Counted from the stretch's first letter, positions 6,112-30,826 are shown. The stretch is 64,000 nt of DNA from Oligoflexia bacterium (GCA_043732485.1 JAYTHP010000175.1:63-64062); one strand, 5' to 3'. The notes: generated by a model not told the origin, from the sequence alone. Translations and numbers: made by a program.

Positions 6112-7233
6112 CTAGCTATCTGCTAGCTCCCGGTACCAGGCGGGAGCTGCAAATTTCTCTTTACCAAAGGGCAAGCGATTCATCTCGATTTCCCCCATAA
6201 AGCTCGGCAGGTAGCCTGTGGTAATCAGCTCGCCCACGATGGTCCCATCGGCGGCCCGACCCCGCTGAACGAATTTAAAGATATCATGAATCTGATAGCG
6301 ACCGGTATCGCCCACTTCTGGCATCACTTCGGTAATATGCGTGACCTTGCGACTGCCATCCATCAGTCGCTTGATTTGCACCACCACGTGGATGGCTGAG
6401 GCAATTTGCCGACGAATAGCAGAAACGGGCACCTGCGTTTCCCCCATCATCGCTAAAGTTTCCAGCCGTACCAGGGCGTCATAAGGGTTGTTGGCGTGCG
6501 TTGTCCCCATCGATCCGCCATGGCCGGTATTCATGGCGGTAATTAAATCGAGGGCCTCAGGCCCTCGCACCTCGCCGACGATAATACGATCAGGTCTGAG
6601 CCTAAGCGCTGATTTAATCAAATCGCGCACCGTGATTTCGCCTTTTCCTTGCTCATCTTTCGGTTTAGTTTCAAAGAAGACCACGTGCTCGGTGACGATC
6701 TTCAGCTCAGAGGAGTCTTCGATAATCAGCAGCCGCTGCGCCCCGGGGATGCGCGATCCTAGCACATTGAGTAAGGTGGTTTTGCCGGATCCGGTGCCGC
6801 CGGACAGGATCATGTTTTTTGCCAGAAAAATACAAACGTCCAAGAAACGGGCGGCCTCCTTGGAAAGAGAACCCCGCGAAATGAGATCAATAAAGGTGGG
6901 ACTGCCTTTGGAGAATTTACGAATCGCAAGCGTGGTGCCCTTGCGCGAGCAAGGCGGAATCACCGCCGCCACCCGGCTGCCATCCGGGAGTCGGGCATCG
7001 AGGATCGGATTTTCCTGATCCACCCTGCGGCCAACAAACTGGGCAATGTTGCGCACGGCAGCCTGCAAGGCTTGCTCGTCCTTAAACTGCACACTGGTTT
7101 TCTCTAGTAACCCCTTGCGCTCGATGAAAATCTCGCTTGGGCCATTAATCAGCACCTCAGACACGGAATCATCACTCAGAAATTGGGCCACCGGAGCAAG
7201 AAAAGTGCCCACGGAATCTTCAAAAATCCCCAA
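6112..7233 (-). CDS. CpaF/TadA/VirB11-family type II/IV secretion ATPase
   Basis: 373 aa. Walker A is SGGTGSGKTTLLN. The Asp box (LLIIEDSSEL), Walker B (RPDRIIVGEVRG) and His box (MNTGHGGSMGTTHAN) are also present. Confidence 0.85.
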   Translation of the reverse strand: MGIFEDSVGTFLAPVAQFLSDDSVSEVLINGPSEIFIERKGLLEKTSVQFKDEQALQAAVRNIAQFVGRRVDQENPILDARLPDGSRVAAVIPPCSRKGTTLAIRKFSKGSPTFIDLISRGSLSKEAARFLDVCIFLAKNMILSGGTGSGKTTLLNVLGSRIPGAQRLLIIEDSSELKIVTEHVVFFETKPKDEQGKGEITVRDLIKSALRLRPDRIIVGEVRGPEALDLITAMNTGHGGSMGTTHANNPYDALVRLETLAMMGETQVPVSAIRRQIASAIHVVVQIKRLMDGSRKVTHITEVMPEVGDTGRYQIHDIFKFVQRGRAADGTIVGELITTGYLPSFMGEIEMNRLPFGKEKFAAPAWYRELADS

Positions 7234-7239
7234 AGCTTT

Positions 7240-8175
7240 TTAATCCCTTCCCACCCTGACTTGAGAAACTCTCAAGCGCGGATCGCGCACAATTAACGTC
7301 CCGCGTGCACCATTGATCGGACAGTACATCTGGAACTGTCCGACTTCGGTCGGGGTAAAATTAAGCTCGCCCATCTCAGCCATTTTAATCTGCTTACGCA
7401 CTTGCAATTCATCAATAATCAGACAGGTCACCTTCTTGGTGGCGCTGGTGATCAGCAACCGCACCGGGATGTCTTGGGTGACAAATAACGTATGAGGGAA
7501 AAAATCACTCTCACCACTAATCAGCGCAATTTCTTGCACCCCTTGCCGGAGCGCTGCATTGGCGAGCGGAGAAAGGGTTTGGGCAGACAACACCCCCACT
7601 TTTTGCGACCCTAAGGAATTTTTTTCCCAGCGCTTTTCACCCGACGGCAGATGAGACTCTGTGGACATCTTGCCCCTCTCAGACCTCTTCGACCTCTTCG
7701 ACCTCTTTGACCTCTTTTTTGCCCCACCTTTTTTAGCGCCACATTCATCCTGCTCGCACGAACCCATCGCCTCCGCCGACCCCTCTTCTTCCCCTTCGCT
7801 GGCAGGAGCACGGCCCCCCATCCCGCCGCCACCTTCCATCGGACTTACGCTGGCACTCAGGAGCTGCTGTTCTTCAGCTAAAAAATTTCGGGAGCTGCGG
7901 GAAGAACCCCAACCCCCTGGCTGCTCCAGCCTGGCTCGAGGCGACTCCGGTTGCGCCCCAAAGCGCGACGGGGCAAACTCCTCCGTCTCGGACGCCTGAC
8001 TAACCGGCTCCTGATTTTGCAAAAACGGGGAAACCATCGGCACCTCAGCCCTCAAAACGCCCCCACCCCACGGCAAGGGCAATAACGGCAGCAGTGCTCC
8101 TACCAGGACGGCCAAGCGATATCCCGCCTTAAATGTGCCAACCACTAATTTTTGGTTCGTTTTTGTGACTCGCAA
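7240..8175 (-). CDS. Membrane-anchored protein with low-complexity spacer and C-terminal cupredoxin-like domain
   Basis: The open frame runs to 8412. A TTG at 8175 with GAGGG 8 nt upstream gives an N-terminus of MRVTKTNQKLVVGTFKAGYRLAVLVGALLPLLPLPW (charged stretch then TM). The middle is Gly/Glu/Ser/Lys-rich (KRSKRSKRSKRS). The C-terminus PVRLLITSATKKVTCLIIDELQVRKQIKMAEMGELNFTPTEVGQFQMYCPINGARGTLIV resembles the cupredoxin_1 pattern (TC...ftP...G.y.f.C...M.G.l.V). The stop lies 6 nt before the ATPase start. Confidence 0.5.
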   Translation of the reverse strand: MRVTKTNQKLVVGTFKAGYRLAVLVGALLPLLPLPWGGGVLRAEVPMVSPFLQNQEPVSQASETEEFAPSRFGAQPESPRARLEQPGGWGSSRSSRNFLAEEQQLLSASVSPMEGGGGMGGRAPASEGEEEGSAEAMGSCEQDECGAKKGGAKKRSKRSKRSKRSERGKMSTESHLPSGEKRWEKNSLGSQKVGVLSAQTLSPLANAALRQGVQEIALISGESDFFPHTLFVTQDIPVRLLITSATKKVTCLIIDELQVRKQIKMAEMGELNFTPTEVGQFQMYCPINGARGTLIVRDPRLRVSQVRVGRD

Positions 8176-8548
8176 CGCATCTACCCTCAAAGAAGAGACT
8201 CCATGAAAAAACACCGGGACAACACACCCAGACAAAAACCTTAAAAGAAGAAAAAAAAGAGGAGAGTCACCTCCACCTTGGCACAGGATTCTCCCACCTG
8301 AGCCCGAAGGCTTTCTCTTAGCTTCCCCATCGGCACTTGCGTCCAAGACCCTTACACCTAAACGCCAATAAAAATCACGACACACTGAGACTCTCCCACA
8401 TCCCCTCAGCAATGAAGGTGGGTAGGTAGAGGTAGATCAGGCAAGTAGGTCAGTCAGGATTTTGGCGGAAGGCAGAGCCGGGGAAGCGGCAGTGGCTTGG
8501 CTGCGTGTTGCCTCCTCAAAGAAAGCCAGAAGACAGCCGCTTCATTTT

Positions 8549-8583
8549 GGTCACAGGGTGGTCACAGGGCGGTCACAGGGCGG
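8549..8583. repeat. 11-bp tandem repeat, about 3.2 copies (GGTCACAGGGY)
   Basis: GGTCACAGGGT GGTCACAGGGC GGTCACAGGGC GG read directly from the sequence. It is intergenic, upstream (minus sense) of the cupredoxin-like/ATPase pair. Confidence 0.8.
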
Positions 8584-8728
8584 TTAAAAGCTTTTTGCGC
8601 GAAAATCAAAAACTTGAAGCCTCACGTGAGACCAAACACGAGCCAAAGCGCGACAGAAAAAAACTCAAGCCAGAGGAGAGGAGGAAAGAGGGAGCAGTAA
8701 AAGGCAGACCACTAAGCCCCCGCGGCCG

Positions 8729-9340
8729 TCACAGCGAAACGCGAACCACAGCCTGGGCCTGAAAATCAATCAGACTGAGCGCACTTGACGCGGCAAGCGC
8801 CGGCTCATAGAGCAAACTCACTTGCGGCCCCACGGAGAGCCCGTGCTCCCACACAAACTGATAACCCGTCACCACCCCTAAGGCCAAAGCAGTGAGGGAT
8901 CCAGCAGTCACTCCGGTAAGAGCCGCAAACTCGGTTGCCGCAAAGCCTACGGCGCTGGCACTTAAAATCCCCACGCCCACCCGGGCGCCGCAGTAAAGCG
9001 CTCTCAAGACGCCCGTAAAATAATAGGTAAGATCGGCTGTCAGGAAGGTCTGATGAGCACTGAGCCCTAAAGCCGTGAGACTGACCCCGGAAGAGCTGAG
9101 ACTCAAAGCCATCGAGGTTACACTCGCCCCAAGCTCAAAGCGGGGATGGATCTGATAACCCACCCGGCCGCCATAACTCAAGGAAGAGGAAGACGCCGTC
9201 GTGCCCGTGATATTCAACGAGACCACATCCAGCCCGACCCATCCACTGAAATTGAGCCCCTGCTCCTGGGCGTTACTCGTTAAAACGCCTAACCAAAAAC
9301 AAAGCACCATCATAGCCCCAAGCCTGAGCGAGCGCCTCAT
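8729..9340 (-). CDS. Putative outer-membrane beta-barrel protein, paralog A
   Basis: The signal peptide is MRRSLRLGAMMVLCFWLGVLTSNA-QEQ, from the ATG at 9340. The sequence is alternating-hydrophobic and Gly/Ser/Ala-rich. It is colinear with the neighbouring ORF: GGRVGYxxHPxxELGASV, DLxYxFxG, LYxGARxGVG, GLSVGPxVSxxY, DxQAQAxxR. Confidence 0.55.
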   Translation of the reverse strand: MRRSLRLGAMMVLCFWLGVLTSNAQEQGLNFSGWVGLDVVSLNITGTTASSSSLSYGGRVGYQIHPRFELGASVTSMALSLSSSGVSLTALGLSAHQTFLTADLTYYFTGVLRALYCGARVGVGILSASAVGFAATEFAALTGVTAGSLTALALGVVTGYQFVWEHGLSVGPQVSLLYEPALAASSALSLIDFQAQAVVRVSL

Positions 9341-9484
9341 CAAAAGGCTAAAGTTTCCTAGATTCTCCTGAGATCTCGTGACTTGCAACCCCCCCCAAAC
9401 CCTTCGACGGTTAGGTGAACCAGGTGCCTAAGAACACCTGAAGGCTCCCACCCTCTAAAAACATTCAAAAAAGAACACAGCGCG

Positions 9485-10048
9485 CTAGAGCGCGTAGCGG
9501 AGCGCCGCCTGAGCCTGAAGGTCCGTCAGGTTTGCTTGACTACTGGCTGCCTGCGTTGCGTACATGAAGCTCACGCGAGGGCCGACTGATAATCCCATAA
9601 GAATTGGAAAATCACAACCAGCCACCGCTCCGAAAGCAAAAGAAGTGTTCGTCGTCGAATTAAAAACACTAAAAACACCCACACCCGCGCGAGCCCCCAC
9701 ATAAAGCGGACTGATCAATCCTGGAAAATGATACTGAAGATCACCCGTGATGAAGGTCTCTGTAACATAGAGTCCCAGATCCGCTAAATTCTTCCCTAAA
9801 TAGGAGGGATTCAACTCACTGGTCACGACGCTCGCACCGAGCTCGACACTAGGATGGACCATGTATCCGACTCGGCCACCCCAACCGAAGGAAGTTGAAC
9901 TCGCGGACGCACCTGAGGCGTTCAGGCTTGAAAGATCCACGCCCAGTAAAGCACTGACATTAAGGCCTAATTCAGCAGCCTGGCTCACAGAACCACTCAA
10001 GGAAAACAACAATCCGACAACCGCGACGACTCTGGTCATTCGCCTCAT
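9485..10048 (-). CDS. Putative outer-membrane beta-barrel protein, paralog B
   Basis: The signal peptide is MRRMTRVVAVVGLLFSLSGSVSQA-AE, and the conserved blocks match those of 8729..9340. Confidence 0.6.
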   Translation of the reverse strand: MRRMTRVVAVVGLLFSLSGSVSQAAELGLNVSALLGVDLSSLNASGASASSTSFGWGGRVGYMVHPSVELGASVVTSELNPSYLGKNLADLGLYVTETFITGDLQYHFPGLISPLYVGARAGVGVFSVFNSTTNTSFAFGAVAGCDFPILMGLSVGPRVSFMYATQAASSQANLTDLQAQAALRYAL

Positions 10049-10342
10049 ACTTCCTTTCTCCTCCGGGTTACTTGGACCCTAGCAATTTTAAGTCCTTTCT
10101 TGATTCTAGCATAAAGAAGGAACCTAATAAAAAATAATAAAAGAATAAAATTAGCGTTGTCACCCGACACCCAAGAGTGATTTTTTGTCAAAATCCTGAC
10201 TCGAAAATTCGACCAAAACAGCGGGGCTCGCTCTCAGGTGACCTTCGCCTGGTATTTCCGCTGTTTTTTCGGCAAGAAAAGCCCCCAAGATCCCAACCTT
10301 CACTCGTTGCCCTGCCGCAATCCCTACTCCCACCGCCCGCGG

Positions 10343-18710: not shown

Positions 18711-21545
18711 ATGGCCGACAAATTTTCTGAAAACTATATTGATTCAGCCCGCTTCGATCGCCTTCCTCAGCTCGAAGAGCACTCACTCATGTCGGACCTG
18801 CTGGAGTTCAACGATCCCGCCTCACCGCTTGCTCTTCCGCTCAACCCCCCGCTAACACCTGCCTTCCCCTCCCCCCCCGCACTCCCACCCTTGCTCTCAA
18901 CAGGGCCTGGCCTGACCACGAGCTTACCGCTTTTTTCCAGCCCTAGCCGCTTAACACCGCAATTTTCCTCCTACCTGTCGACCTTGCTACCGATTTTTCA
19001 TGAGCTGACGCAAGACTTAGAAAGCAACCTACACCAGCTGATGTCGCTCAATCCCAGTCGCCGAGAAAGCATCGCCCAGTACTTAGACTTGCTGGCAGGA
19101 CAGCAGCCCTCAAGCAGCTTGGCGTCGTCGTCGTCCGCGCCACCTTCTGCAGGTGGTGAGCTCAAGAAACGACTTGAGGGGAAAAAAACCGCGGTCCAGC
19201 TTGCGGCGCTTAAAACCTTCCTAGAAGAGGTGGCATTGATAGCGCTGGGACAGATCCTGCTACTCAAAAGCTGGTCGGATCGCGGGATCAGAAAATGGTG
19301 CCTTAATGATTTAGGACGGCTGAACTGGGCGTTAAGCTCGACCTTAAAATCAGCCTTGCCGCTCGACCGCGAAGGCTGGCAAATCACCAGACCTAACTTA
19401 TACTCCTGGTACAACCCTTCCAAACAGCACCAGGCTGATTTATGGAACAACCTGGAGAAGTGGAACCTCGATCAAGAGGGCTCAGCGCTCTTGCGCCAGT
19501 TGCTGCAGCACCTGCGCAAATCTCCCTCACTGGACGGACAAGCGTCTGGGCGCTATGATTTTCGCTTTTTTGAAAGCCTTTGGCCAAAAATGGAGTCCTT
19601 CGGCTTTGACGCTTCGCCCGAAGGCATGAAGCGCAAAAAAGTGATTTTTACCCCCACTTTGCGTGACGGTGCGCTCTTGCGCTCGGGGCCCAAGGAATTG
19701 ACCTGGATTGGGCTAGAAGCCTCAGCCTTTCAATTCATGATCAGCGAGCTGATGATTCTCTGGCGCGGCCCGATTCCCCCGCCATTGTGGGCGATTGGCA
19801 CCGGGCTTGAAGTGCACAGTCGCGATCAGCTGACGTTCTTATCCCAGGCCTCAAAACCTTCCCTCTATTGCCGAATCGCTGAGATGGAGGCCTGCCAGGC
19901 GGCCTTCATTTTAGAAGAAACCATCTTGCGTGCCCAAAGCAGGCAAGCTGCCTGCCACACGTTCCGCGAGCAGCTCGAGGGGCTCCCTTATTTTAAGAAA
20001 ATCAAAGCTTCAGGTACTAGCCTTGGAACGCTGCAAGCCTGCGTGGCACTGACCAAACTGCGGCCCGGAGGCATCTTGCTGTGGGCAAGAGAAGAGCCGC
20101 TGACGTCCAAAGAGGGGAGCGAGGCGCTCCATTTTCTCTTAGACCGCGCGCGACTCAACCACGAATGGGACTTTTCTCAGATCGAGCATCAATTACCTCA
20201 CGCCGAGGCGCTTTTTCCGAAACATCTCTACCTTTTTCAAAAGGAACTGCAACTCGAAGCCAGGCACTCCCACCGTCCCACCCGCCATGTGATTGAAGGC
20301 TCCTTAAGGAGTCACGTAGAACTGCCCCTGCTGCTGGAGGATGCATTTGCGGCCATTGAGTCCCAAAACCCACCACGCGGCCATTGGTCGGTGATCTCGC
20401 ACGTCAGCCCGCACACCCAACGCGACTGGATGGACAAGTGGCCTGATCCCACCTGCCACCGCGCCGTGAGAAGGCTCAATCAGCTCAGGCAGGCTTCTTT
20501 ACCGCTAGCACAAATCACCACCATTCGGCCAACGCCTGAGGGCGATCCCAAGCGCGGCGGCACCTGGAGCTTGCAACTCGCGCTTAAGGGCTTCTGGATT
20601 AAAGCGGAACTCACCCCCTCCGGTCAAAGAAAACTTGCCGTTTACCCGCTCCCCGCCGCAGGCGAAAATGCCAAAGGGCAGGGATTTTTTATCCTTTTTG
20701 GCCAGGAAGAATGGCTCCACCCCCTGAAAGCCTACCTCAGCTCGCAGTCAACCCAAACGTGGTTGGATCATCACGCGGAGCGCAAAGGCGACCGCTGGCT
20801 CCTCAAAGAGCAAGTCGTGAAGTGGATCCCCATCCCCAAAAACTTGCTCAAGCAACTCCCCATGCCGCTTGAGCCTGAGGCGGGACTCCACTCACAACTG
20901 AAAAAAAACTGGGCTCCCGCTAGCAGCAGCAGTAATGACCACGACTTTTTACCCGACCTGTGGCAGCAGCACTTCAGCGAAATAGACACTCAGCCAAAGG
21001 CCATCATGACGGCCTTACAAAATCTCCCGCCTGACGAGCCTGCCGCAGAGACCATTCATGCCGCCTGTTTCGTGGCTGCCGCCAAAGCCTTAGGCCAACT
21101 GGAGACCTCGCAAAATCGCTTGCTCGGTCTGGTTTCGCCTGAAGGAAAACTGCGCTGGAAAGAGATTCTGGCCATCTTACCGGAAACTGAAGTCGTTTCC
21201 CTCACCCAACACCCCAAAATCAGGCTGATCGGCTCGCTTCCCCCGCACCTCACCATTACCCGGATGGACCGCGTGAAATCACCCACCGCCGGAGTGCTGC
21301 TGACCACCGAGGCTGGCTTTAATCTCCAGTTAGCCTGCTCCTCGAGTCTCTTATTAAGCCTGCTCCTGGATCAACTGGAAGGCTATCCTCATCCCACCTG
21401 GCTTGAGCTGGTTGAGAACGTCAGGCTACCGCGCAAAATCGAATTCGCCGAAGCCACCGCTCTGGACGTCTTAAATGCCCACGCCCAGCAGACCTCGCGC
21501 TTACAGGAATTCCACGATCTTCTGAGCAGCTGTCAACTCTTTTGA
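18711..21545 (+). CDS. Large (944 aa) orphan protein; possible degenerate Eco57I/TaqI-type N6-methyltransferase-like scaffold
   Basis: A long uninterrupted ORF with AGGAGA upstream of its ATG. See the findings for the motif-level argument. No Walker A and no NPPY/DPPY motif was seen. Confidence 0.6.
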   Translation: MADKFSENYIDSARFDRLPQLEEHSLMSDLLEFNDPASPLALPLNPPLTPAFPSPPALPPLLSTGPGLTTSLPLFSSPSRLTPQFSSYLSTLLPIFHELTQDLESNLHQLMSLNPSRRESIAQYLDLLAGQQPSSSLASSSSAPPSAGGELKKRLEGKKTAVQLAALKTFLEEVALIALGQILLLKSWSDRGIRKWCLNDLGRLNWALSSTLKSALPLDREGWQITRPNLYSWYNPSKQHQADLWNNLEKWNLDQEGSALLRQLLQHLRKSPSLDGQASGRYDFRFFESLWPKMESFGFDASPEGMKRKKVIFTPTLRDGALLRSGPKELTWIGLEASAFQFMISELMILWRGPIPPPLWAIGTGLEVHSRDQLTFLSQASKPSLYCRIAEMEACQAAFILEETILRAQSRQAACHTFREQLEGLPYFKKIKASGTSLGTLQACVALTKLRPGGILLWAREEPLTSKEGSEALHFLLDRARLNHEWDFSQIEHQLPHAEALFPKHLYLFQKELQLEARHSHRPTRHVIEGSLRSHVELPLLLEDAFAAIESQNPPRGHWSVISHVSPHTQRDWMDKWPDPTCHRAVRRLNQLRQASLPLAQITTIRPTPEGDPKRGGTWSLQLALKGFWIKAELTPSGQRKLAVYPLPAAGENAKGQGFFILFGQEEWLHPLKAYLSSQSTQTWLDHHAERKGDRWLLKEQVVKWIPIPKNLLKQLPMPLEPEAGLHSQLKKNWAPASSSSNDHDFLPDLWQQHFSEIDTQPKAIMTALQNLPPDEPAAETIHAACFVAAAKALGQLETSQNRLLGLVSPEGKLRWKEILAILPETEVVSLTQHPKIRLIGSLPPHLTITRMDRVKSPTAGVLLTTEAGFNLQLACSSSLLLSLLLDQLEGYPHPTWLELVENVRLPRKIEFAEATALDVLNAHAQQTSRLQEFHDLLSSCQLF

Positions 21546-21965: not shown

Positions 21966-22051
21966 CTCATTAAGGGCTCGTACCTAACGAACCTTAAACG
22001 CGGTTGTCAGAGAAAACGATAAAACCTAATCCCACCTCCACTTTCCCACCA

Positions 22052-22080
22052 GGGCCTCGCACGGATCCGAGGCCCTTTTT
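22052..22080 (+). terminator. Rho-independent terminator
   Basis: GGGCCTCG (22052-22059) and CGAGGCCC (22068-22075) form an 8-bp GC stem with an 8-nt loop, followed by TTTTT. Confidence 0.65.
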
Positions 22081-22484: not shown

Positions 22485-23549
22485 ATGGGAAACAAGAGTA
22501 ATAAAATGAGTAATAATAAGAGTAATAAGATGATGATGAACGACTTGCAAAAATCAGTTTTTCCGACTCAACTCATCTCTGCGCCGCTTACCCTGCTGCT
22601 GCTGCTGCTTGCTAGCTGCAACCCTAGCAGCTTCGATAAAAACCCAACCCCGAAGTTCACCCCGCAAGTCACACCTACGATCCAGCCGACGCCCACACCC
22701 ACGCCAACCCCGCCTCCGACGCCTATACCTACGCCAACACCGCCGCCTTCGCCCCTCCCGCCTGGGACAGGTGTTGGGACCTCGGGCAATTTCCTTCTAT
22801 TTGGTGATGAATGGATTACCCGTATTGACGTTGATCAAAACATGTACCCGAACTGGAACAGCACTGCCAACTCAACCAGCATGAGCTACAATCTTGGACT
22901 TTTTTGGCAAGACGCCTTAACGACCATCACGAGCAACAGCACCTTCCAAGGAAACGTCAAGCCAGGGGCCAATCAAATCCTTTTTGCCGTTTTTTCCAAT
23001 GAGTCAAACATCCTCTCTCCTGCCGACTTTGCGGCACACGGGCTGCCCAATGCCAATTTCTTGAACAACTATCACTTTACCACCTACCAAAACTTCAACA
23101 ATAACCCCCTTCCTGACCCCAATTTAAGCCTACAAAACTTACTCAATTTTAACGCCGTCATTATTGTTTCTTACAGCAGAGCGCTTGATTCCAGCGTTCT
23201 GGCCCAGTATATTAAAAAAGGGGGCGGCATCATGGCTTTCCCCGTAGGTTTTGGTAAAGTCTGCCTGGATCCCAGCAATCCTAATTACAATAACGCCGGG
23301 GGCGATCCTGCAACGAGTAATCAATTTACTTCGCCCAACTACGAATGCCTCAACATGAATTCGCTTTTTTCCTCAGCTGGCTTCCCCTATCAATTTGACT
23401 GCGGCAATACCAACGGCAACCTGCAAGCACTGACAACTAATCCAGTTTTCCGGAACATTCAAAACCCCGTCAAAAACCTACCGTTTGATAACGGCTACGG
23501 TGTCATCAACGTGGGCGGAGTGCAAACGACGGCAAATTTTTGTCAGTAA
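22485..23549 (+). CDS. Lipoprotein, paralog 1 of an unassigned four-Cys domain family
   Basis: The signal peptide with lipobox is PLTLLLLLLASC, followed by a TPTPTPPPTPIPTPTPPPSP linker and the conserved C-terminal domain from about 22788. The N-terminus has a duplicated NKSNKM unit, so the exact start Met is uncertain. Confidence 0.8.
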   Translation: MGNKSNKMSNNKSNKMMMNDLQKSVFPTQLISAPLTLLLLLLASCNPSSFDKNPTPKFTPQVTPTIQPTPTPTPTPPPTPIPTPTPPPSPLPPGTGVGTSGNFLLFGDEWITRIDVDQNMYPNWNSTANSTSMSYNLGLFWQDALTTITSNSTFQGNVKPGANQILFAVFSNESNILSPADFAAHGLPNANFLNNYHFTTYQNFNNNPLPDPNLSLQNLLNFNAVIIVSYSRALDSSVLAQYIKKGGGIMAFPVGFGKVCLDPSNPNYNNAGGDPATSNQFTSPNYECLNMNSLFSSAGFPYQFDCGNTNGNLQALTTNPVFRNIQNPVKNLPFDNGYGVINVGGVQTTANFCQ

Positions 23550-23798
23550 CCCCAAGAACTAGCAGGCGTGCACTTTGACTATCGCGGATCATCGAGTGGT
23601 TCTTCCGGCAAGCTATCAGTGATCCGACGCCATCATCCAACCATCCAACCAACACCCCACAGTTAAAAGGTCTTTCGCTTTTGCTCCGTATCCTTGAGCT
23701 CCTGTGCCTGGGTAAAAAAAATAATTAAAATTTCATCCCCAAATTAAAAAAAATAGAGTTACGATGAAGACTGTTATTCTAAAACAAAGGAAATAAAA

Positions 23799-24815
23799 AT
23801 GAAGAAACCAGTTTCGCGCTCTTTTAAAGTAATTGTTCTCATGCTAATGCTCCAAATATTAGTCATCAGTTGCAAGAACAATAACTCCAATAAACCTTAC
23901 TCCGCTGCGGGCGCCTCGAATTCCTCTACTTCCCAAACCTCTTCTGCAAGCACGGGTGCACCCAACTCTGGCGCAAACGGTACTACAAGCGGACCCTCTT
24001 CTTCGCTCACTGTGGCTCCCACAGTTCCCCCAAGCTCGGGTATCGCGACCAATAACAATTTGATGCTCTTTGGCGATGAATGGATTACCCGACTGGATAT
24101 TGTCAGCAAAAATAATCTTTGGAGTGCAAGCCCTAGCCCCACTAGCATGGGCTACAATCTCTCGCTTTTCTGGCAAGACGCCTTGCAACAGATCACCAGT
24201 AATCCAAACTTTCAAGGCAACGTCAAGCCAGGAGCCAATCAAGTGCTTTTTGCACTCTTTAGCGACTTTGAGCATGACGTCTACTCACCTTCTGAGTTCA
24301 TCACGCAAGGGCTTCCTTACTCGGACTTCTTGAATAACTATCACTTCACCAACTATCAAAAGAGCAATAACATCAGCCCTGATCCAGCCTTAAGTCTCGA
24401 GAGCCTTCTCAATTATAATGCCATCATCCTGGTCTCCTATAGCCGTGCCCTAGACCCCCAAGTCCTTTCCCAGTACATTCAGCGCGGCGGTGGCGTGATG
24501 GTGTTTCCGATCGGTTTCGGCTATGCTTGTCCTGATCCCGCTAACCCGAAATTTAATGCGGCAGGCGGTGATCCCACCACCACGACCGAATACTACACCG
24601 CTAATTTTGAATGCCTGAACATGAACTCCTACCTCATGGCAGCCCAGTTCCCTTACCAATTTGACTGTGGTAATCAAGCAGGTAACTTACAAAATCTTGC
24701 CAATTCTCCCTATTTTAGCAACATTCAAAACCCAAGCCAAACCCTGCCTTTTGAAAAAGGCTATACTGTGATTAACGCAGGCGGACCACAGACCACCGCT
24801 AATTTTTGCCAATAG
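23799..24815 (+). CDS. Lipoprotein, paralog 2 of the same family
   Basis: MKKPVSRSFKVIVLMLMLQILVISC carries the lipobox, followed by a Ser/Asn/Thr-rich linker and the conserved domain from about 24057. AAGGAA precedes the ATG. Confidence 0.85.
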   Translation: MKKPVSRSFKVIVLMLMLQILVISCKNNNSNKPYSAAGASNSSTSQTSSASTGAPNSGANGTTSGPSSSLTVAPTVPPSSGIATNNNLMLFGDEWITRLDIVSKNNLWSASPSPTSMGYNLSLFWQDALQQITSNPNFQGNVKPGANQVLFALFSDFEHDVYSPSEFITQGLPYSDFLNNYHFTNYQKSNNISPDPALSLESLLNYNAIILVSYSRALDPQVLSQYIQRGGGVMVFPIGFGYACPDPANPKFNAAGGDPTTTTEYYTANFECLNMNSYLMAAQFPYQFDCGNQAGNLQNLANSPYFSNIQNPSQTLPFEKGYTVINAGGPQTTANFCQ

Positions 24816-25377
24816 ATCCGTTAGCTGGTTCATCTGCAGCGAAGCGATGCCCTGTATCAGCATGAACAGCTAGTAGGCCCGTGCTAGACGAGAGCCCGGA
24901 TACCTGGCGGCTGGTGACGAGGCTATCACACTCACGCACGCCTGAGTGACAGCGCAACTCAAGGCTGCAGGCGATTTGCGTGAAAGTGAGGGCCGCGCCC
25001 GTTGGCCGTTTTTTTCTCGCGCTAGTCCTCAGTCGTCCTGCCGACCTTCTCCCCGCCCGCACTCCAGCCACCCCACGGCCTGCAGCCTCTCACGCGGCCC
25101 ACTTTTTTTTCACCTTATTATTTTTTATTTCTCTTACAATGCTATGCCCTCACTGACTTGCTTGCCCTGTAAATTCTGATACTTGCCGCTAAAACGTCTA
25201 TCCTTTTTAGGCATCTGGAGTTAAAATAAAATGAAGTAGAAAAAAATTTTTAAAAAAAATAAGCTTTCAGACAAAATAGGTCAGTCAGCCAACCTCAGAG
25301 CGAAGTGCAAGTCGGCCCTAGGCAGATAGTTATTAAGTCCCCCAAACTTTAGACCAAAGAGAAGATCAACTAAAAAT

Positions 25378-26496
25378 ATGCATTATCTATTGTTAGCGAT
25401 CATGATTCAGACCTTAGCAGCATGCAACAGCAGCAACTTTAGCGCAATCACTCCACCGCCATCAGCTCCACTACCTCTTGTGACGCCTAAGCCTCTCACT
25501 ACTGCGACTACTAGTGCCCCCTCTGACACTTCACCCCCCTTGATCGACTCCCCAGGCTCGCTTGCGACCCTACCGCCACCCAATCTCCCTCCTCCTAGCA
25601 CCACGATCTCTCCCTCACCTACTGCGAGCATTGAGCCGTCCCCCGGCGTGTCGCCAGCTCCGTCACCATCTGCTTCCCCTTTCGCCTCCCCCAGCCCATC
25701 GGTTGCCCCCAGCGCAGGCGTAGGCAACACCAACAACCTGATTTTATTTGGCGATGAGTGGATTGCTAGGCTTGATCTCGATAAACACCTATCCAACTGG
25801 GCTGCAAGTCCCAGTCCGACGTCGATGGGTTACAATCTCTCGCTTTTTTGGCAAGATGCCCTTGCACAAATCACGAGTAACAGCAACTTTCAAGGCAACG
25901 TCAAGCCAGGTGCCAATCAAATCTTGTTTGTGCAATTTAGCAGCGCGGAAGGTGACGTCTACTCCCCGTCAGACTTTGCGGCGCACGGGCTTCCTAATGC
26001 TGGTTTTCTGAGCAACTATCAATTCACTAATTATCAAAACACCGGTAACAAACCACTCCCGGATGCCACCTTAAGCCTTGAGAACCTACTTAATTACAAC
26101 GCCGTGATCTTGGTCTCCTTTAGCCGAGCTTTGGACCCGAGCGCGCTAGCCCAGTATCTTAAAAAGGGCGGGGGCGTGATGGCTTTCCCGATCGGCTTTG
26201 GCCGCCCGTGTTTAGATTCCACCAGTGGGAGTTACGGCTCGGCAGGTGGCGATCCTGCCACCACGGTGGCTTACAATACTGCTAATTACGAGTGTTTGAA
26301 TATGAATACATTTTTGGCGGCAGCGCAGTTCCCGTATCAGTACGATTGCGGCAACACGTCAGGCAACTTGGAGTCGCTCGCGACCAGTCCGACGTTTAGC
26401 AATATTACTAACCCTTCGCAAACACTGCCTTTTTCAAACGGTTACGCCGTAATCCCCACGGGAGGAGTTCAGACCACTGCCAACTTTTGTCACTAA
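25378..26496 (+). CDS. Lipoprotein, paralog 3 of the same family
   Basis: MHYLLLAIMIQTLAAC carries the lipobox, followed by a ~100-aa Pro/Ser-rich linker and the conserved domain from about 25735. Confidence 0.8.
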   Translation: MHYLLLAIMIQTLAACNSSNFSAITPPPSAPLPLVTPKPLTTATTSAPSDTSPPLIDSPGSLATLPPPNLPPPSTTISPSPTASIEPSPGVSPAPSPSASPFASPSPSVAPSAGVGNTNNLILFGDEWIARLDLDKHLSNWAASPSPTSMGYNLSLFWQDALAQITSNSNFQGNVKPGANQILFVQFSSAEGDVYSPSDFAAHGLPNAGFLSNYQFTNYQNTGNKPLPDATLSLENLLNYNAVILVSFSRALDPSALAQYLKKGGGVMAFPIGFGRPCLDSTSGSYGSAGGDPATTVAYNTANYECLNMNTFLAAAQFPYQYDCGNTSGNLESLATSPTFSNITNPSQTLPFSNGYAVIPTGGVQTTANFCH

Positions 26497-26838: not shown

Positions 26839-27690
26839 ATGACACGCCACCCTCACCCAACCCCCTCCGTCTCATCGCAGCCAAAACCGCCGCAGTCACC
26901 TTCGCGAAGTTCGGCGTTGCTTCCGCAAGTCACACTCAGCCCGTGGCATCAAAGTGCCGCAAGCCTACAAGACCTTCAGCTTTACCAGCAGATTCTTCAC
27001 CTGCAGGAGCTACTGAGCGATTGCGAGCAAGCGCTAGCACCTTCCCCACCGTCGGTTCAAGAGGCCACGCTTTTCGCGTCACAACCGCAAGAGGGGTTTG
27101 ATGTCCAGCAACCCCCGGCCGTCATGCTGCAAGCACTTTTGGCGCAGCTATGGCAACAAGAACTGGCATTAGTCACCCCCTTGTGTTTGCAGCCTAGTGC
27201 TTCCTGGGAGCTGCTCTTCCGGCTTGCGCATGACTCGGGTCAAAGGTGGTCGGCCAACGCTTGGGGCTTACACTCGGCGTCATCGTCGTCGTCAGCCGCA
27301 AACTTGCGGGAATGGGCTATGATCTTAAGCAACTCCGTGCTTTTAGGCTTTCCACGCTCACCGAATTTGCTGGTGAGGCGCGCACTCGAGCGCACGCTCG
27401 AGGTGGAATTACTGCACTGTCCGCATCAAGCCTTCCGGTCTACCCGCGCTCTTCACCACCCACAACACCGGCAGCAGCATCAGCAGGCGCCAACACCGTC
27501 AGCCCAGCATCCGCTGCACAATCCAGCCGTGTTGCCTCAGGCTGCTGACTTGCTGTGTCAATTTCATACCCACTGGGTAGAGGGCCTCATGACGACCTCC
27601 CTCCCTGAGGTGCAGGTGACCCACAGCCAGGCGCGTGGTCCTGATCGCTGCGTTCTGAGCGCCTCCCTGACCCACAAACTGCACCACTGA
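26839..27690 (+). CDS. Hypothetical protein with C-terminal V4R / ATC-hydrolase-like Cys motif
   Basis: 283 aa. The N-terminus is Gln/Pro/Ser-rich. The C-terminus LEVELLHCPHQAF...LLCQFHTHWVEGLMTTSLPEVQVTHSQARGPDRCVLS fits the C...F / C.....G / G...C spacing of V4R and ATC-hydrolase-type domains. This assignment is by eye only. Confidence 0.45.
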   Translation: MTRHPHPTPSVSSQPKPPQSPSRSSALLPQVTLSPWHQSAASLQDLQLYQQILHLQELLSDCEQALAPSPPSVQEATLFASQPQEGFDVQQPPAVMLQALLAQLWQQELALVTPLCLQPSASWELLFRLAHDSGQRWSANAWGLHSASSSSSAANLREWAMILSNSVLLGFPRSPNLLVRRALERTLEVELLHCPHQAFRSTRALHHPQHRQQHQQAPTPSAQHPLHNPAVLPQAADLLCQFHTHWVEGLMTTSLPEVQVTHSQARGPDRCVLSASLTHKLHH

Positions 27691-27805: not shown

Positions 27806-29683
27806 GTGAAAAAGCTCATGAAAGTGCCTGCAGCCTCGCCACCCACCCTTACCCTCCACCACCCAGCCCACCCCTCAAAAACAAGACTCGCGCAGGCCTT
27901 AAAATTGCAAAAAGAGATCTATCGCGGCTTACAGCTAGAAATTGAAGAGCTGCTTGGCCCCACCCCTCAGGCCATTGCCCGTTATGCAAGGGAAAATGCC
28001 CGTGACTTTCGGCGGCTGCCGCCTTCCTCTTCTTCTTCTCGGCTTCGGGCTCGGCTTCAAGCTCAGTGTCAAGCGCAAACCCACCCCCCCCTGTCTTACG
28101 CTCGCGTACTTGAGGAGCTGCAGGCAAAGGAGGTGATCTTTATTGGCGATTTTCACGCCTTTCAGCAGTCGCAAAAAACCGCTTTGCGCTTACTGAAAGA
28201 TCTGTCGCTGACCCGAAAGCCCACGGCCATCGGCTTAGAGTTTCTGGGCAGTCAGTTTCAAGCGGCCTTAGAGGACTACCAACACGATCGCTGCTCGCTG
28301 ACTGAATTTTTAACCTTGATCGATTACCAGGAAAACTGGGGATTTCCCTACGCCTACTACGAGCCCCTGATCACTTGGGCCAAGCAGCAAGACATTAGGC
28401 TTGTGGCCTTAAACATGCCCCATGCCCCCGCACGCACAGAGACCGACTTACGAGCGAGAGACCAATGGGCTGCGAAGATCATTACCCACGAGCTCACCCC
28501 AAAGCAACTCGTCCGCACCCAGGCTAACCAGCCGCCGCCGCACCCTCACCACGAGCAGTCCCTCCTCCACCCACTTCATTCCATCCCGATGATCGTCTTG
28601 TATGGGAGCCTGCACGTTGGCTCTGCCCATCTCCCGAAACACTTAACGCAGATCTCCAAAAAACTCCTGAAACGCCCGCTCTCTTGGGCCTCCGTCCACC
28701 AAGACGTTGACTCTTTGTACTGGAAATTAGCCGCACACGGGCTTGAACTCTCCACTGAAGCCTTACAACTCAAAAGCAACGTTTTTGCGCTCTTCCCCTA
28801 CTCCCCCAACGCCAAACTGCACGCCTTAGTGCGCTGGCTAGAAAATAGCGCGTCTGAGGTTGATCCCCAGTTTCTTAGCGACTCCTTCTCGGAAACCGAC
28901 TTTCCCTCCTGGGTGCGCGAGCTTGCCATCAGGCTAGCCAGCTTCTTTGGCTGCCCCCCGCCCTCACTCGATCCACCCACCCTCTATACTTGGGAAAACG
29001 ATAAGACCCTCGATCTACAACACGGAGGCAACCCTCCCACGCGCCTGACCCAAGTGCAAAACCGCGTCATTCGCTTTGCCGTGCGCCACCAGCACACCTT
29101 GAACCTGCCTTTTGCAGGCGTGGGTTATCTTGCCTCAGGCTCTCTCAACCGGGTCGCTGAAATGGCAGCCTTGCACCTCTTTCACAGCCTGCACCCCCAA
29201 CTCCTGCAATCGCAAGCCCTCTCCCTCAGTTTTCACTTCCAGCTGCTCGCCAGAACCTTAGGCTATCTCGGTAGCCTCATGATGAACCCCAAGCGCAAGC
29301 TCGAACCGCCCGGGCATAACCAAGAGCGGTTGCTGGCACTAAAGACAAAAAAGACCCGGCCACTTTTCGTGCGAGAAGCGATGATCAGAGGCCACATGCA
29401 CCGTCTACTCAGTGGCAAGCCTCGCGCAAACACCCCTCCCCAGCGCCGCGGACGCCGCCGCCCCGTCAGCCTCACCCACTGGGAGGTAGCCAGACGGCTT
29501 GGAGCGACACTCGCACAAGACTTGTACCATCAGCTGCGACACGATCAGCTGCCGCAAAACGCCCTCGCTCAGCTGTTCTTTGCACCCCTGACACCCGCTA
29601 AGCTTGAAGCGCGCGCCCAGAAGCTGCTGGAGTTTGCAGCGGCGCCTGCCAACAACAACGCCGGGCCTACCACCACTTTCTGA
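27806..29683 (+). CDS. ChaN/Tiki-superfamily (haem-binding-uptake-like) domain protein with long C-terminal extension
   Basis: 625 aa with a GTG start. KEVIFIGDFHAFQQSQKTALRLLKDL...AIGLEFLGSQFQAALEDYQ...WGFPYAYYEPLITWAKQQDIRLVALNMP matches the ChaN pattern (GExH...GlEmf...Ld.y...W.f....Y.pl..fA.....l.a.N.P). Confidence 0.65.
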   Translation: MKKLMKVPAASPPTLTLHHPAHPSKTRLAQALKLQKEIYRGLQLEIEELLGPTPQAIARYARENARDFRRLPPSSSSSRLRARLQAQCQAQTHPPLSYARVLEELQAKEVIFIGDFHAFQQSQKTALRLLKDLSLTRKPTAIGLEFLGSQFQAALEDYQHDRCSLTEFLTLIDYQENWGFPYAYYEPLITWAKQQDIRLVALNMPHAPARTETDLRARDQWAAKIITHELTPKQLVRTQANQPPPHPHHEQSLLHPLHSIPMIVLYGSLHVGSAHLPKHLTQISKKLLKRPLSWASVHQDVDSLYWKLAAHGLELSTEALQLKSNVFALFPYSPNAKLHALVRWLENSASEVDPQFLSDSFSETDFPSWVRELAIRLASFFGCPPPSLDPPTLYTWENDKTLDLQHGGNPPTRLTQVQNRVIRFAVRHQHTLNLPFAGVGYLASGSLNRVAEMAALHLFHSLHPQLLQSQALSLSFHFQLLARTLGYLGSLMMNPKRKLEPPGHNQERLLALKTKKTRPLFVREAMIRGHMHRLLSGKPRANTPPQRRGRRRPVSLTHWEVARRLGATLAQDLYHQLRHDQLPQNALAQLFFAPLTPAKLEARAQKLLEFAAAPANNNAGPTTTF

Positions 29684-29720: not shown

Positions 29721-30826
29721 CAAAAATGCAAGGCGCACCCTGGCGCTGCGGCCCTGAGCTCAGCTTGGACGGCAGAAGAAAGCCGCTTTTCGTAGGCGCC
29801 CACGCTCAACCACACGAGAGCGTGCGGACGACTTTGCTGCAAAACCTTGGCACATTCTCTTGCCCCCGCGTCCCCCATCTTGGTGCCAAACAGAATCAAT
29901 TTCTTAAGACAAGGGCTCTCTCTTGTCGCTGCTGCCCCCTCAAACCCTATCCGATAGCAGTTGCCACGTCATCCAACATCAAGTTGCAGGCCAACTGCAA
30001 GGAGGTGCGGCGATTGTTTGTACTCCCCAGCGCCCTGCCGATGGCTATGGCAGCTCCTGGCCCGAGAGAGTTGCTCCCAAGATCGCAAGAAATGAGAGCA
30101 TTGTGTAGGCTCGCTAACGCCGGCGCGATTACCGCGACCCCAACGTCGCCAAGCTCGTTACGCTCGAGATCCAAGCAGGTGAGGCCATTGTGCTTGCTCT
30201 CCAGCGCTGCCGCAATGTCGCTTGCACCCTCCCTGCCAATCTTGTTTGACGCTAAATTCAACGAGGTGAGCCGGCTGCGCGGGCTTGCTGCCGCCCGCGT
30301 GAGGGCTGTTACCCCGGCCTTACCTAGAGCAGTGCACCTCAAGTTGAGAGCGCTGAGGCGATTGTGCCTGCTGACTAAGGCCTCAGTAAGGACTCTGGCG
30401 GGTTGCCCCACAAAACTAAAACGATGAGGCGATTGTTCTCGCTCCCCGACGCCTGCGCAATGACTCCGACACCCTCCACGCCAATACGGTTGCCACCCAA
30501 AGCCAACGAGCTGAGGAAGACAGGGTATGCGCCACTACCACCAGGGCCCTCCAACGCCTGCGCGATGACTCTGGCGCCCCCGTCCCCCAAATCTCTCTAG
30601 CCCCCTCCGCGCCAATCTTGTTGAACCCCAGCCTCAACGCGCTAAGTCGTGCGAGGTGATTGAAGCTTCTCAAGGCCCGGGCGAGGTCTCTTGCACCCTC
30701 GTCTCCTAGCTCAAATCGCCTCAAATTAAGCTCAATCTCTTGTGTCCGCGGTAGTTGCTGCAGCAATCCCTTGTCCAGTGACCCGATGCAAAAACTGAAT
30801 CGAGACTCGCTTAAAATCCCTAGCAA
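29721..30826 (-). pseudogene. Ribonuclease-inhibitor-type leucine-rich-repeat (LRR_RI) gene, broken into four reading frames
   Basis: 28-aa repeats of the form L..L.L..N.IG.EGA..LA.AL are readable in ORFs 30416..30826, 30375..30590 and 29947..30411, and in a fourth frame down to a TGA at 29721 (KKLILFGTKMGDAGARECAKVL). The frame junctions fall where part of a repeat unit is missing. Confidence 0.7.

Follow-up and report, generated by a model that had tools for sequence, protein, structure and literature searches.

A tandem triplet of putative stalked lipoproteins with an undescribed head domain resembling GATase1-like proteins and the jumbo-phage phiKZ gp201 family

The locus and its gene products

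The subject of this study is a tandem triplet of genes in a stretch of DNA of 64,000 nucleotides (nt; GCA_043732485.1, JAYTHP010000175.1:63-64062), the whole of which is called the window below. Genes 1, 2 and 3 lie on the + strand at 22485..23549 (354 amino acids, aa), 23799..24815 (338 aa) and 25378..26496 (372 aa), and the ORF (open reading frame) list agrees exactly with the three + strand ORFs that an earlier note, made from the sequence alone, had placed there. Each product has a putative lipoprotein signal peptide, a low-complexity spacer and a C-terminal domain of ~253 aa, hereafter the head. The head is an undescribed family in a known fold class, and its eight known members are stalked lipoproteins of uncultured Bdellovibrionota.

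The heads comprise residues 102-354 in protein 1 (22788..23546), 87-338 in protein 2 (24057..24812) and 120-372 in protein 3 (25735..26493), as delimited by the alignments. In a MAFFT alignment they are collinear and 62-69% identical between copies, with BLAST and HMMER E-values of ~1e-100, and every conserved block quoted in the earlier note was found. The regions before the heads (signal peptide and spacer) are essentially unalignable, with 24-36% identity among the copies. The spacers measure 56, 61 and 103 aa from the lipobox Cys to the head in genes 1, 2 and 3, respectively, and by composition they are Pro/Thr-rich in gene 1 (residues 46-101, 22620..22787), Ser/Asn/Ala/Thr-rich in gene 2 (residues 26-86, 23874..24056) and Pro/Ser-rich in gene 3 (25426..25734). 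Pro, Thr, Ser, Asn, Gly and Ala make up 79-87% of them and only 2-4 residues are charged, which bears out the divergent Pro/Thr/Ser/Asn-rich linker of ~55-100 aa described earlier.

The lipobox was sought with a PROSITE PS51257-style pattern, [LIVMFWSTAG](2)-[LIVMFYSTAGCQ]-[AGS]-C, following an uncharged hydrophobic stretch. It is present in 3/3 window proteins, as LLLLLLASC ending at Cys45 of gene 1 (codon 22617..22619), LQILVISC at Cys25 of gene 2 (signal peptide MKKPVSRSFKVIVLMLMLQILVIS, codon 23871..23873) and IQTLAAC at Cys16 of gene 3 (short signal peptide MHYLLLAIMIQTLAA, codon 25423..25425). The same expression matches the homologues P0004 to P0007, that is, all seven members tested, and in P0009 a lipobox (..VALITTGC) was recognised by eye, which brings the family to 8/8; the lipobox that the earlier note saw in each protein is thus shared by the three copies and by every homologue elsewhere, and in every member a low-complexity spacer follows it. 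Gene 2 has the best canonical signal peptide of the three, with Lys/Arg in the n-region (the first ~7 residues) and the Cys within ~15-35, while the n-region of gene 1 contains Lys/Arg only with Met17 or Met18 as the start codon. The signal peptide of gene 3 has 15 residues and no Lys or Arg, and its lipoprotein call is the weakest of the three.

The start codons of two of the genes deserve comment. A 12-nt tandem repeat of 3.2 copies (GAGTAATAAAAT, 22496..22533, + strand), which encodes NKSNKM repeats, lies at the extreme 5' end of gene 1, ahead of three Met codons in a row. Because the 5' extension consists of this repeat, the first ATG is doubtful and translation probably starts at Met16-18; the repeat may be an untranslated leader or a slippage-prone N-terminal extension. 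A 30-nt direct repeat in two copies (22686..22744, + strand) lies within the Pro/Thr spacer of the same gene, as low-complexity coding DNA whose length could change by slippage. For gene 3, the public annotation starts at an internal Met at ~25825 and gives a protein of 223 aa (P0003), so that the conserved GDEW strand of the head is lost together with the signal peptide and the 103-aa spacer. The open frame of 372 codons and the conserved sequence 5' of the internal Met indicate that this start was called too far downstream.

A rare family with an old, lineage-specific triplication

The family proved to be very small. When the head of protein 1 served as query in a word-indexed search of 5.8 billion protein clusters, four proteins came back, the window copies and P0004 (368 aa, 38% identity to the protein 1 head). 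An exhaustive HMMER profile scan of 1.84 billion representatives at 50% identity added three further real members, P0005, P0006 and P0007, and a second profile search with the seven sequences added one more, P0009; pattern scans of JGI metagenome contigs and IMG/VR gave no further loci. Another match, P0008, a repetitive protein of 658 aa, is spurious and matches solely through a short 'AGGEP..TTT' repeat. The total is eight proteins, all with a lipobox, and carriers outside the window have one gene copy each. P0006 comes from an 'Oligoflexia bacterium' metagenome-assembled genome (MAG), the one named source among the family members. The TypA GTPase encoded in the window finds its best named relatives, at 77-79% identity, in genomes of Oligoflexia, Bdellovibrionia and Bdellovibrio, which places the window in an uncultured member of Bdellovibrionota. 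P0007 is annotated with 217 aa, but its reading frame is interrupted at one point by a frameshift, probably introduced in the assembly of a long-read contig: at its locus (L009, 10001..10900) the remainder of the head can be read in frame +1 as far as '...AETPY' and a stop codon, and bridging the frameshift restores a full-length protein.

The window copies form a clade, with 62-69% mutual identity versus 37-46% to all other members, and because they are closer to each other than to other members the triplication appears to be specific to this lineage. Concerning the selection and gene conversion on which the earlier note had asked for data, the head-coding parts have a proportion of synonymous differences (pS) of 0.76-0.81, which is saturated, and a nonsynonymous divergence (dN) of 0.25-0.28. 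As synonymous sites are saturated while dN is low, the triplication is old and each head has been under long-term purifying selection; the comparison gave no sign of pseudogenisation in any of the three copies. The same saturation, together with a longest identical run of 26 nt between any two copies, argues against recent gene conversion or duplication. The GC content at third codon positions (GC3) of the three genes, 0.53-0.57, is inside the range of the housekeeping genes of the window, and mobile-element genes were not seen in the vicinity, on which grounds a foreign or prophage origin was rejected.

Cysteines and invariant residues of the head

Four cysteines are invariant among the window copies (C260, C288, C306 and C353 in protein 1 numbering), as the earlier note had observed, and this holds for P0004 as well. 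Family-wide only two of them stand: Cys192 and Cys210 (head numbering) of the ECLNMN and DCGN motifs are the sole Cys invariant in 8/8 proteins. Cys164 and the C-terminal Cys257 are both present in the three window copies and P0004 and both missing in P0005, P0006, P0007 and P0009, and these four also lack a loop of ~18 residues that follows Cys164, before the ECLNMN block. Because Cys164 and Cys257 are present or absent together, the pattern suggests a universal core disulfide Cys192-Cys210 (C2-C3) and an accessory staple Cys164-Cys257 (C1-C4). The data are consistent with the extracytoplasmic, disulfide-bonded fold proposed earlier, and the joint loss of the first and fourth Cys in four homologues lends weight to this pairing.

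Across sequences that are 35-40% identical, 41 of the ~253 positions are invariant, including G11, D12, E13, W14, R17, W28, N40, W45, D47, Y100, S133, Y146, G150, G151, G159, G161, E191, N194, N196, Y206, D209, N212, N216 and Y242. There is no His among the 41, and the position equivalent to a nucleophile elbow, after the GG strand, reads G-F-G with no Cys, in agreement with the statement that no catalytic triad can be argued. According to the predicted model described below, the invariant residues concentrate at the C-terminal ends of strands, where GDEW follows strand 1, a Ser follows strand 4 and GG..M..G.G surrounds strand 5, and near the core disulfide, which is flanked by ECLNxN and DCGNxxxN. 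Asp, Glu, Asn, Trp and Tyr are frequent among them. In parallel alpha/beta folds ligands are bound at the C-terminal strand ends, and such a composition is typical of carbohydrate sites.

Direct searches and the predicted structure

Sequence searches with the head were negative throughout, so that the absence of a named family held in every collection consulted. Pfam and NCBIfam scans of full proteins and of heads gave sub-threshold noise only: matches to FBA_2, GGDEF_2 and New_glue are chance, and those to SslE, VlpC (its N-terminus), ClfB and TonB, including the weak NCBIfam ones, fall in the signal peptide or the low-complexity spacer. A PDB sequence profile search with the head retrieved Cdc25 only (E 1.8), a PHROGs scan of the seven members was empty, and so was a tblastn search of the head against 50,697 phage records. 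The suggestion of an undescribed function was likewise correct.

AlphaFold2 (AF2) gave a predicted template modelling score (pTM) of 0.67 and a mean predicted local distance difference test score (pLDDT) of 61 from an alignment of four sequences, and 0.76 and 71 from seven, all five models of the latter exceeding 56. The model alternates strands and helices, with strands at head residues 7-9, 69-73, 100-104, 128-132 and 152-156 and two additional ones at 206-209 and 243-246. Two fold assignments suggested by short motifs were rejected. An SGNH/GDSL hydrolase, for which FGDEW could be taken as FGDS, would have the Ser replaced by Glu, and neither an invariant His nor the GxND/DxxH blocks were found; a VWA domain with a MIDAS site was rejected as no DxSxS follows strand 1.

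A likeness to the phiKZ gp201 family of jumbo phages

The best match to the head, by structure and by profile, came from virion proteins of giant phages. A Foldseek search of BFVD retrieved three proteins of 649-896 aa with E-values of 1.7e-4 to 4.1e-4 and a probability of 1.00, aligned near full-length over 245-285 columns with query-based template modelling (TM) scores (TMq) of 0.40-0.47. Weaker matches were a 'virion structural protein' of Ralstonia phage RP12, a PA14-domain protein of PaBG and an ILEI-domain protein of a Dickeya phage. Residues ~102-341 of RP12 ORF136 (600 aa; locus L012, 35052..36851, - strand) represent a domain family found in 84 jumbo-phage genomes, with phiKZ gp201 (L016, 2180..4129), PhiPA3 gp235 and Salicola SCTP-2 gp99 among its members, and PHROGs places gp201-type proteins in phrog_11065, 'virion structural protein'. 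The same domain is an internal module of PaBG gp238, a 'putative tail fiber protein' (L017, 466..4119), and of Dickeya JA29 gp095 (L018, 1344..4877). The genes of these two sit inside tail-fibre gene clusters, and in both proteins the gp201-type domain shares the chain with Calx-beta, PA14 and ILEI (GG-lectin-type) modules; such fusions in such clusters fit a role at a cell surface.

The relationship was examined with hhalign, using an alignment of ten phage-domain sequences and one of seven head-family sequences. The two profiles align over 210 collinear columns with a probability of 88.7%, a P-value of 2.5e-6 and a score of 49.1. Controls stayed well below this, at 14.9 for the reversed profile, a maximum of 19.0 for column shuffles and 24.1 +/- 2.4 (maximum 29.6) for shuffles of 10-column blocks, so that the observed score is more than 10 standard deviations (sd) above the last. 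Both domains seem to be extracellular GATase1-like domains that do not look catalytic. In contrast, there is no similarity to the head at the level of BLAST, HMMER or PHROG, the phage domain lies within virion proteins of 600-1200 aa without a lipobox, a spacer or conserved cysteines, and its own motifs GDHPL and GSES are not in the bacterial family. Taken together, the profiles and predicted structures argue that the head is a remote homologue of the gp201-type domain with a shared fold and not a member of phrog_11065.

In the accessible literature we found nothing on the function or virion position of phiKZ gp201, and it is not among the proteins named in the 2026 structural atlas of 40 phiKZ proteins (PMC13250141). 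The 'gp201' of phage Goslar is PhuZ, an unrelated protein. As a side observation, JA29 gp095 has, besides the gp201-type domain at ~residues 719-882 and its ILEI and Calx-beta modules, a separate weak ThuA match at 168-230 (E 0.018), and it may carry two GATase1-like domains.

The GATase1_like and ThuA branch

No Pfam model detects the phage domain directly, and a search of the PDB with the phage profile left one non-spurious hint, 2gk3 (E 0.43), in a strand-helix-GG-strand segment. Plasmids encode full-length relatives of 2gk3 that bear the annotation 'glutamine amidotransferase' and match GATase1_like (PF07090) at E 1e-70 to 1e-112. By hhalign, the phage domain aligns to seven PF07090 proteins over 154 columns with a probability of 93.9% (P 1.6e-7). 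Directly compared with the PF07090 proteins, the head family reaches a probability of 63% (P 6.9e-5, score 38.7), ~7 sd higher than block shuffles (22.2 +/- 2.4, maximum 31.0), and in permissive mode the alignment extends over 170 collinear columns. The ThuA/GATase1-like fold mentioned in the earlier note is therefore upheld at the level of fold, by the direct comparison above shuffled controls and more strongly by the two-step link through the phage domain.

The shared elements come in the same order in the head and in PF07090 proteins (2gk3, STM3548-type, 'putative glutamine amidotransferase'): a first strand followed by G-[DE]-[ES]-W (GDEW in the head, GESW in PF07090), a hydrophobic strand ending in Ser ('a.ifVSY' and 'd.iilSD'), a helix, a Y[VI]xxGGxhxM strand with a G-rich turn ('YvxxGGxiMaxxiGFG' and 'yvxxGGxLxMiGGY') and later a P..[LN]GY.V motif ('LPFxNGYxVI' and 'WPxxLGYNxV'). 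Both lack a Cys-His-Glu triad. The differences are also considerable, as PF07090 proteins are cytoplasmic, of ~250 aa, without signal peptide, spacer or disulfides, and their genes adjoin those of sugar kinases, phosphotriesterase-like proteins and M20 peptidases. Unlike them, the head has an extra helix-strand insertion of ~50 residues or an extra N-terminal strand, a putative disulfide module formed by ECLNMN and DCGN, and a different C-terminal third. The PF07090 model itself matches none of the seven members even at E <= 10 (gathering threshold 27 bits), while bona fide members score 238-375 bits.

Pfam ThuA (PF06283) has a weak match in one of the seven members, P0005 (E 0.16, 12.7 bits, far below the gathering threshold of 33.4 bits), where residues 170-224 align to profile positions 28-86 in the homologous segment. 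The head segment 'L..L..f.a.ifVSY....L....L..Yv..GG..M' resembles the core of ThuA proteins (PF06283; 4pxy). ThuA acts with the dehydrogenase ThuB in the formation of 3-keto-disaccharides (PMC8121099). In contrast, a ThuB-like (Gfo/Idh/MocA-type) partner gene was found near no head-family locus. For DUF4159, also named in the earlier note, the Pfam scans gave no match at E <= 10, and no profile-profile comparison was made. By the criteria of the models themselves, the head is not a member of PF07090, ThuA or phrog_11065.

Other comparisons are more distant. The head seems to belong to the same general fold class as class-I glutamine amidotransferases (TrpG/PabA/CarA type) and DJ-1/PfpI, but it lacks their defining Cys-His-Glu or Cys-His residues; its conserved Cys look like disulfide partners, and from the conserved residues the head is not a catalytic amidotransferase. 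With stalked surface lipoproteins it shares an identical architecture of lipobox, low-complexity linker and globular head, a likeness that is architectural only, as the Pfam and NCBIfam scans relate the head to no described surface-lipoprotein head family. With moderate confidence, then, we place the head, which has diverged very far, in the class-I glutamine-amidotransferase-like fold, closest to the non-catalytic GATase1_like/ThuA branch, and with the same moderate confidence we assign the jumbo-phage gp201-type domain to that branch.

Interpretation and alternatives

It seems that these genes encode envelope-tethered lipoproteins with a divergent GATase1-like head, a reading of architecture and fold that we favour while judging the case for and against it to be about evenly balanced. 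After export through Sec, the products would be cleaved at the lipobox Cys, acquire a lipid there and be held in a membrane by it. Under the Lol rule of Escherichia coli, a residue other than Asp after the lipobox Cys directs a lipoprotein to the outer membrane by default, and as this residue is Asn, Lys and Asn in genes 1, 2 and 3, the anchor is probably in the outer membrane. The spacer of 56-103 residues, Pro/Thr/Ser-rich and predicted to be unstructured, would keep the head of ~253 residues off the membrane, the universal disulfide (Cys288-Cys306 in protein 1) would stabilise it, and in the lineage of the window a second one (Cys260-Cys353) would tie the C-terminus to the 18-residue loop. 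The three paralogues would thus display slightly different heads at differing distances from the membrane, possibly on the cell surface and facing outward. Because the invariant residues cluster at the C-terminal ends of strands and include many Asp, Glu, Asn, Trp and Tyr, the head may bind a ligand, most likely a carbohydrate of a cell envelope, and to this we give less credence than to the reading of architecture and fold.

Several points weigh against this interpretation. Foldseek against the PDB found nothing significant with either AF2 model (best E 0.02, TM <= 0.26), did not retrieve 2gk3 and placed the ThuA-like 4pxy_A only at rank 26, with the first model and a probability of 0.51. The fold call rests on moderate hhalign probabilities (63-89%) and a model of medium confidence, and the register at the N-terminus can be read in two ways: by way of the phage family, strand 2 of the head corresponds to strand 1 of PF07090 and the GDEW strand is an N-terminal addition whose phage counterpart is the 'VVYDGGFPKF' strand, while in the direct alignment the GDEW strand is itself strand 1, equivalent to GESW, and is followed by the ~50-residue insertion. 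In addition, the signal peptide of the third copy is atypical, the absence of a conserved neighbouring gene makes the context uninformative, no activity can be transferred by homology from PF07090 or phiKZ gp201, and the cluster of Asp, Glu, Ser and Asn suits a hydrolase no less than a binding site.

The last point leads to the main competing explanation, in which the head would work as a tethered hydrolase or lyase on a polymer of the envelope (peptidoglycan, a sugar of lipopolysaccharide or capsule, or lipid), with Asp12/Glu13 of GDEW, Asp47, Glu191, Asp209 and/or Ser133 as candidate catalytic residues. Invariant Asp, Glu and Ser directly after predicted strands occupy the usual place of an active site in parallel alpha/beta folds, the degree of conservation described above is high for a pure binding module, and other families of the GATase1-like fold, namely class-I glutamine amidotransferases, DJ-1/PfpI and peptidase S51, include hydrolases. 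Yet there is no invariant His, neither Cys nor Ser at the canonical nucleophile elbow (GFG) and no match to a hydrolase family in Pfam, NCBIfam or PDB, and the closest relatives, PF07090 and phiKZ gp201, are without known activity; an enzyme is in our view unlikely, though a serious contender. It is also conceivable that the proteins face the periplasm as housekeeping scaffold or oligomerisation modules of the cell's own envelope and are not surface-exposed. GATase1-like domains serve trimerisation in GH42 beta-galactosidases, a lipobox with a non-Asp residue at +2 predicts by default only the inner leaflet of the outer membrane, and both the chromosomal setting amid PheT, CoaD, RsmD, TypA and HtrA and a GC3 inside the range of the window agree with such a role. 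A family of eight proteins among billions, absent from most Bdellovibrionota, fits housekeeping poorly, as does a lineage-specific triplication with hypervariable spacer lengths, and we consider the scaffold improbable.

A different kind of doubt concerns the fold, since the similarity to GATase1_like and phage proteins could be a false positive from generic beta-alpha-beta periodicity and the head a truly new fold. None of the hhalign probabilities exceeds 95%, the PDB matches obtained with Foldseek were generic alpha/beta sandwiches (RecA/KaiC, periplasmic-binding-protein and aspartate carbamoyltransferase (ATCase) types), which we dismissed as fold-class noise, the model is derived from seven sequences, and the HMMER-level Pfam, PHROGs and tblastn searches show no link. 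Against this, two independent methods, Foldseek on structures (E ~1e-4, probability 1.0, near full-length) and hhalign on sequence profiles, converge on a single phage family, the scores lie ~7-10 sd over block-shuffled controls that keep local segments, several short motifs align in the same order, and independent weak ThuA matches (P0005 and 4pxy_A) fall in the homologous segment, which makes a new fold very improbable to us.

Returning to the tethered lipoprotein with a GATase1-like head, this would be a previously unrecognised secreted, disulfide-bonded and lipid-anchored branch of the class-I glutamine-amidotransferase-like fold, and as a by-product the conserved domain of the phiKZ gp201 family could be annotated as GATase1-like. 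Neither the head family nor the GATase1-like link of gp201 is described in Pfam, NCBIfam, PHROGs or the accessible papers. A predatory lifestyle is common in Bdellovibrionota. As a speculation that we think has only a slim chance of being right, the domain could be an envelope (glycan) recognition module common to giant-phage virions and the surface of a largely predatory phylum, the paralogues being a repertoire of receptors for prey or partner surfaces. If so, the fibre adhesins of Bdellovibrio would have in them a counterpart built on lipoproteins, and the first functional handle on the gp201 virion protein family would be at hand. The head is small, compact and easily expressed and thus a tractable target, to which the phage link adds; its structure and ligand could clarify the role of the homologous domain in jumbo-phage virions and show whether stalked lipoproteins serve members of a predatory phylum in recognising cell surfaces. 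The practical importance is limited, with a very rare family (the known carriers are only ~five uncultured Bdellovibrionota lineages), no phenotype known and no conserved context.

Genomic context

The cluster is preceded by genes for CoaD, RsmD and an aminotransferase and followed by those for a ChaN/Tiki-like protein, HtrA and PheT; TypA, PntAB, a PilT-like ATPase and PhoH are encoded farther off in the window. In a tblastn comparison of the window ORFs at 10-40 kb with the loci of P0004, P0005, P0006 and P0007, the lipoprotein gene alone matched, and a conserved operon partner was rejected, no neighbour being common to these four loci; at the P0005 locus the gene is flanked by genes on the opposite strand. 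Because no neighbour is conserved across loci, the protein appears to work without a dedicated conserved partner.

Two terminator-like hairpins on the + strand were noted in a consensus scan, the matches of which do not exceed shuffles in number. One, with 9 pairs and a T-run (22051..22076), lies ~400 nt upstream of gene 1 and would separate the cluster from an upstream ORF of 944 aa. The other, also with a T-run (24991..25007), lies in the 562 nt that separate gene 3 from gene 2 and is followed by an A/T-rich stretch, and its position before gene 3 suggests that this gene is a separate transcription unit.

The 944-aa ORF (18711..21545) and two further flanking ORFs of 283 aa (26839..27690) and 233 aa (29726..30427) gave no Pfam match at E <= 0.001 and have an unusual composition with much Gln, Leu, Pro and Ser. 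On the strand of the cluster and two genes farther downstream, 27806..29683 encodes a protein of 625 aa with an N-terminal haem-binding-type domain of the ChaN/Tiki superfamily (PF04187, E 6.8e-23) and ~400 further residues without assignment. At the locus in the Oligoflexia MAG (L002, 6991..10109), the homologue (7653..8645) has neighbours on the same strand with short gaps, recognised by eye as a DsbA-like thioredoxin-fold ORF (6991..7590) and a cytochrome c peroxidase-like ORF with two haem-binding CxxCH motifs (8667..10109), an arrangement that is not kept at the other loci. At the scale of the window, the GC skew of the + strand is persistently negative (-0.04 to -0.23) to ~42 kb and then, as far as the window's end, mostly weaker (+0.05 to -0.12), and almost every long ORF of the first 18 kb lies on the - strand.

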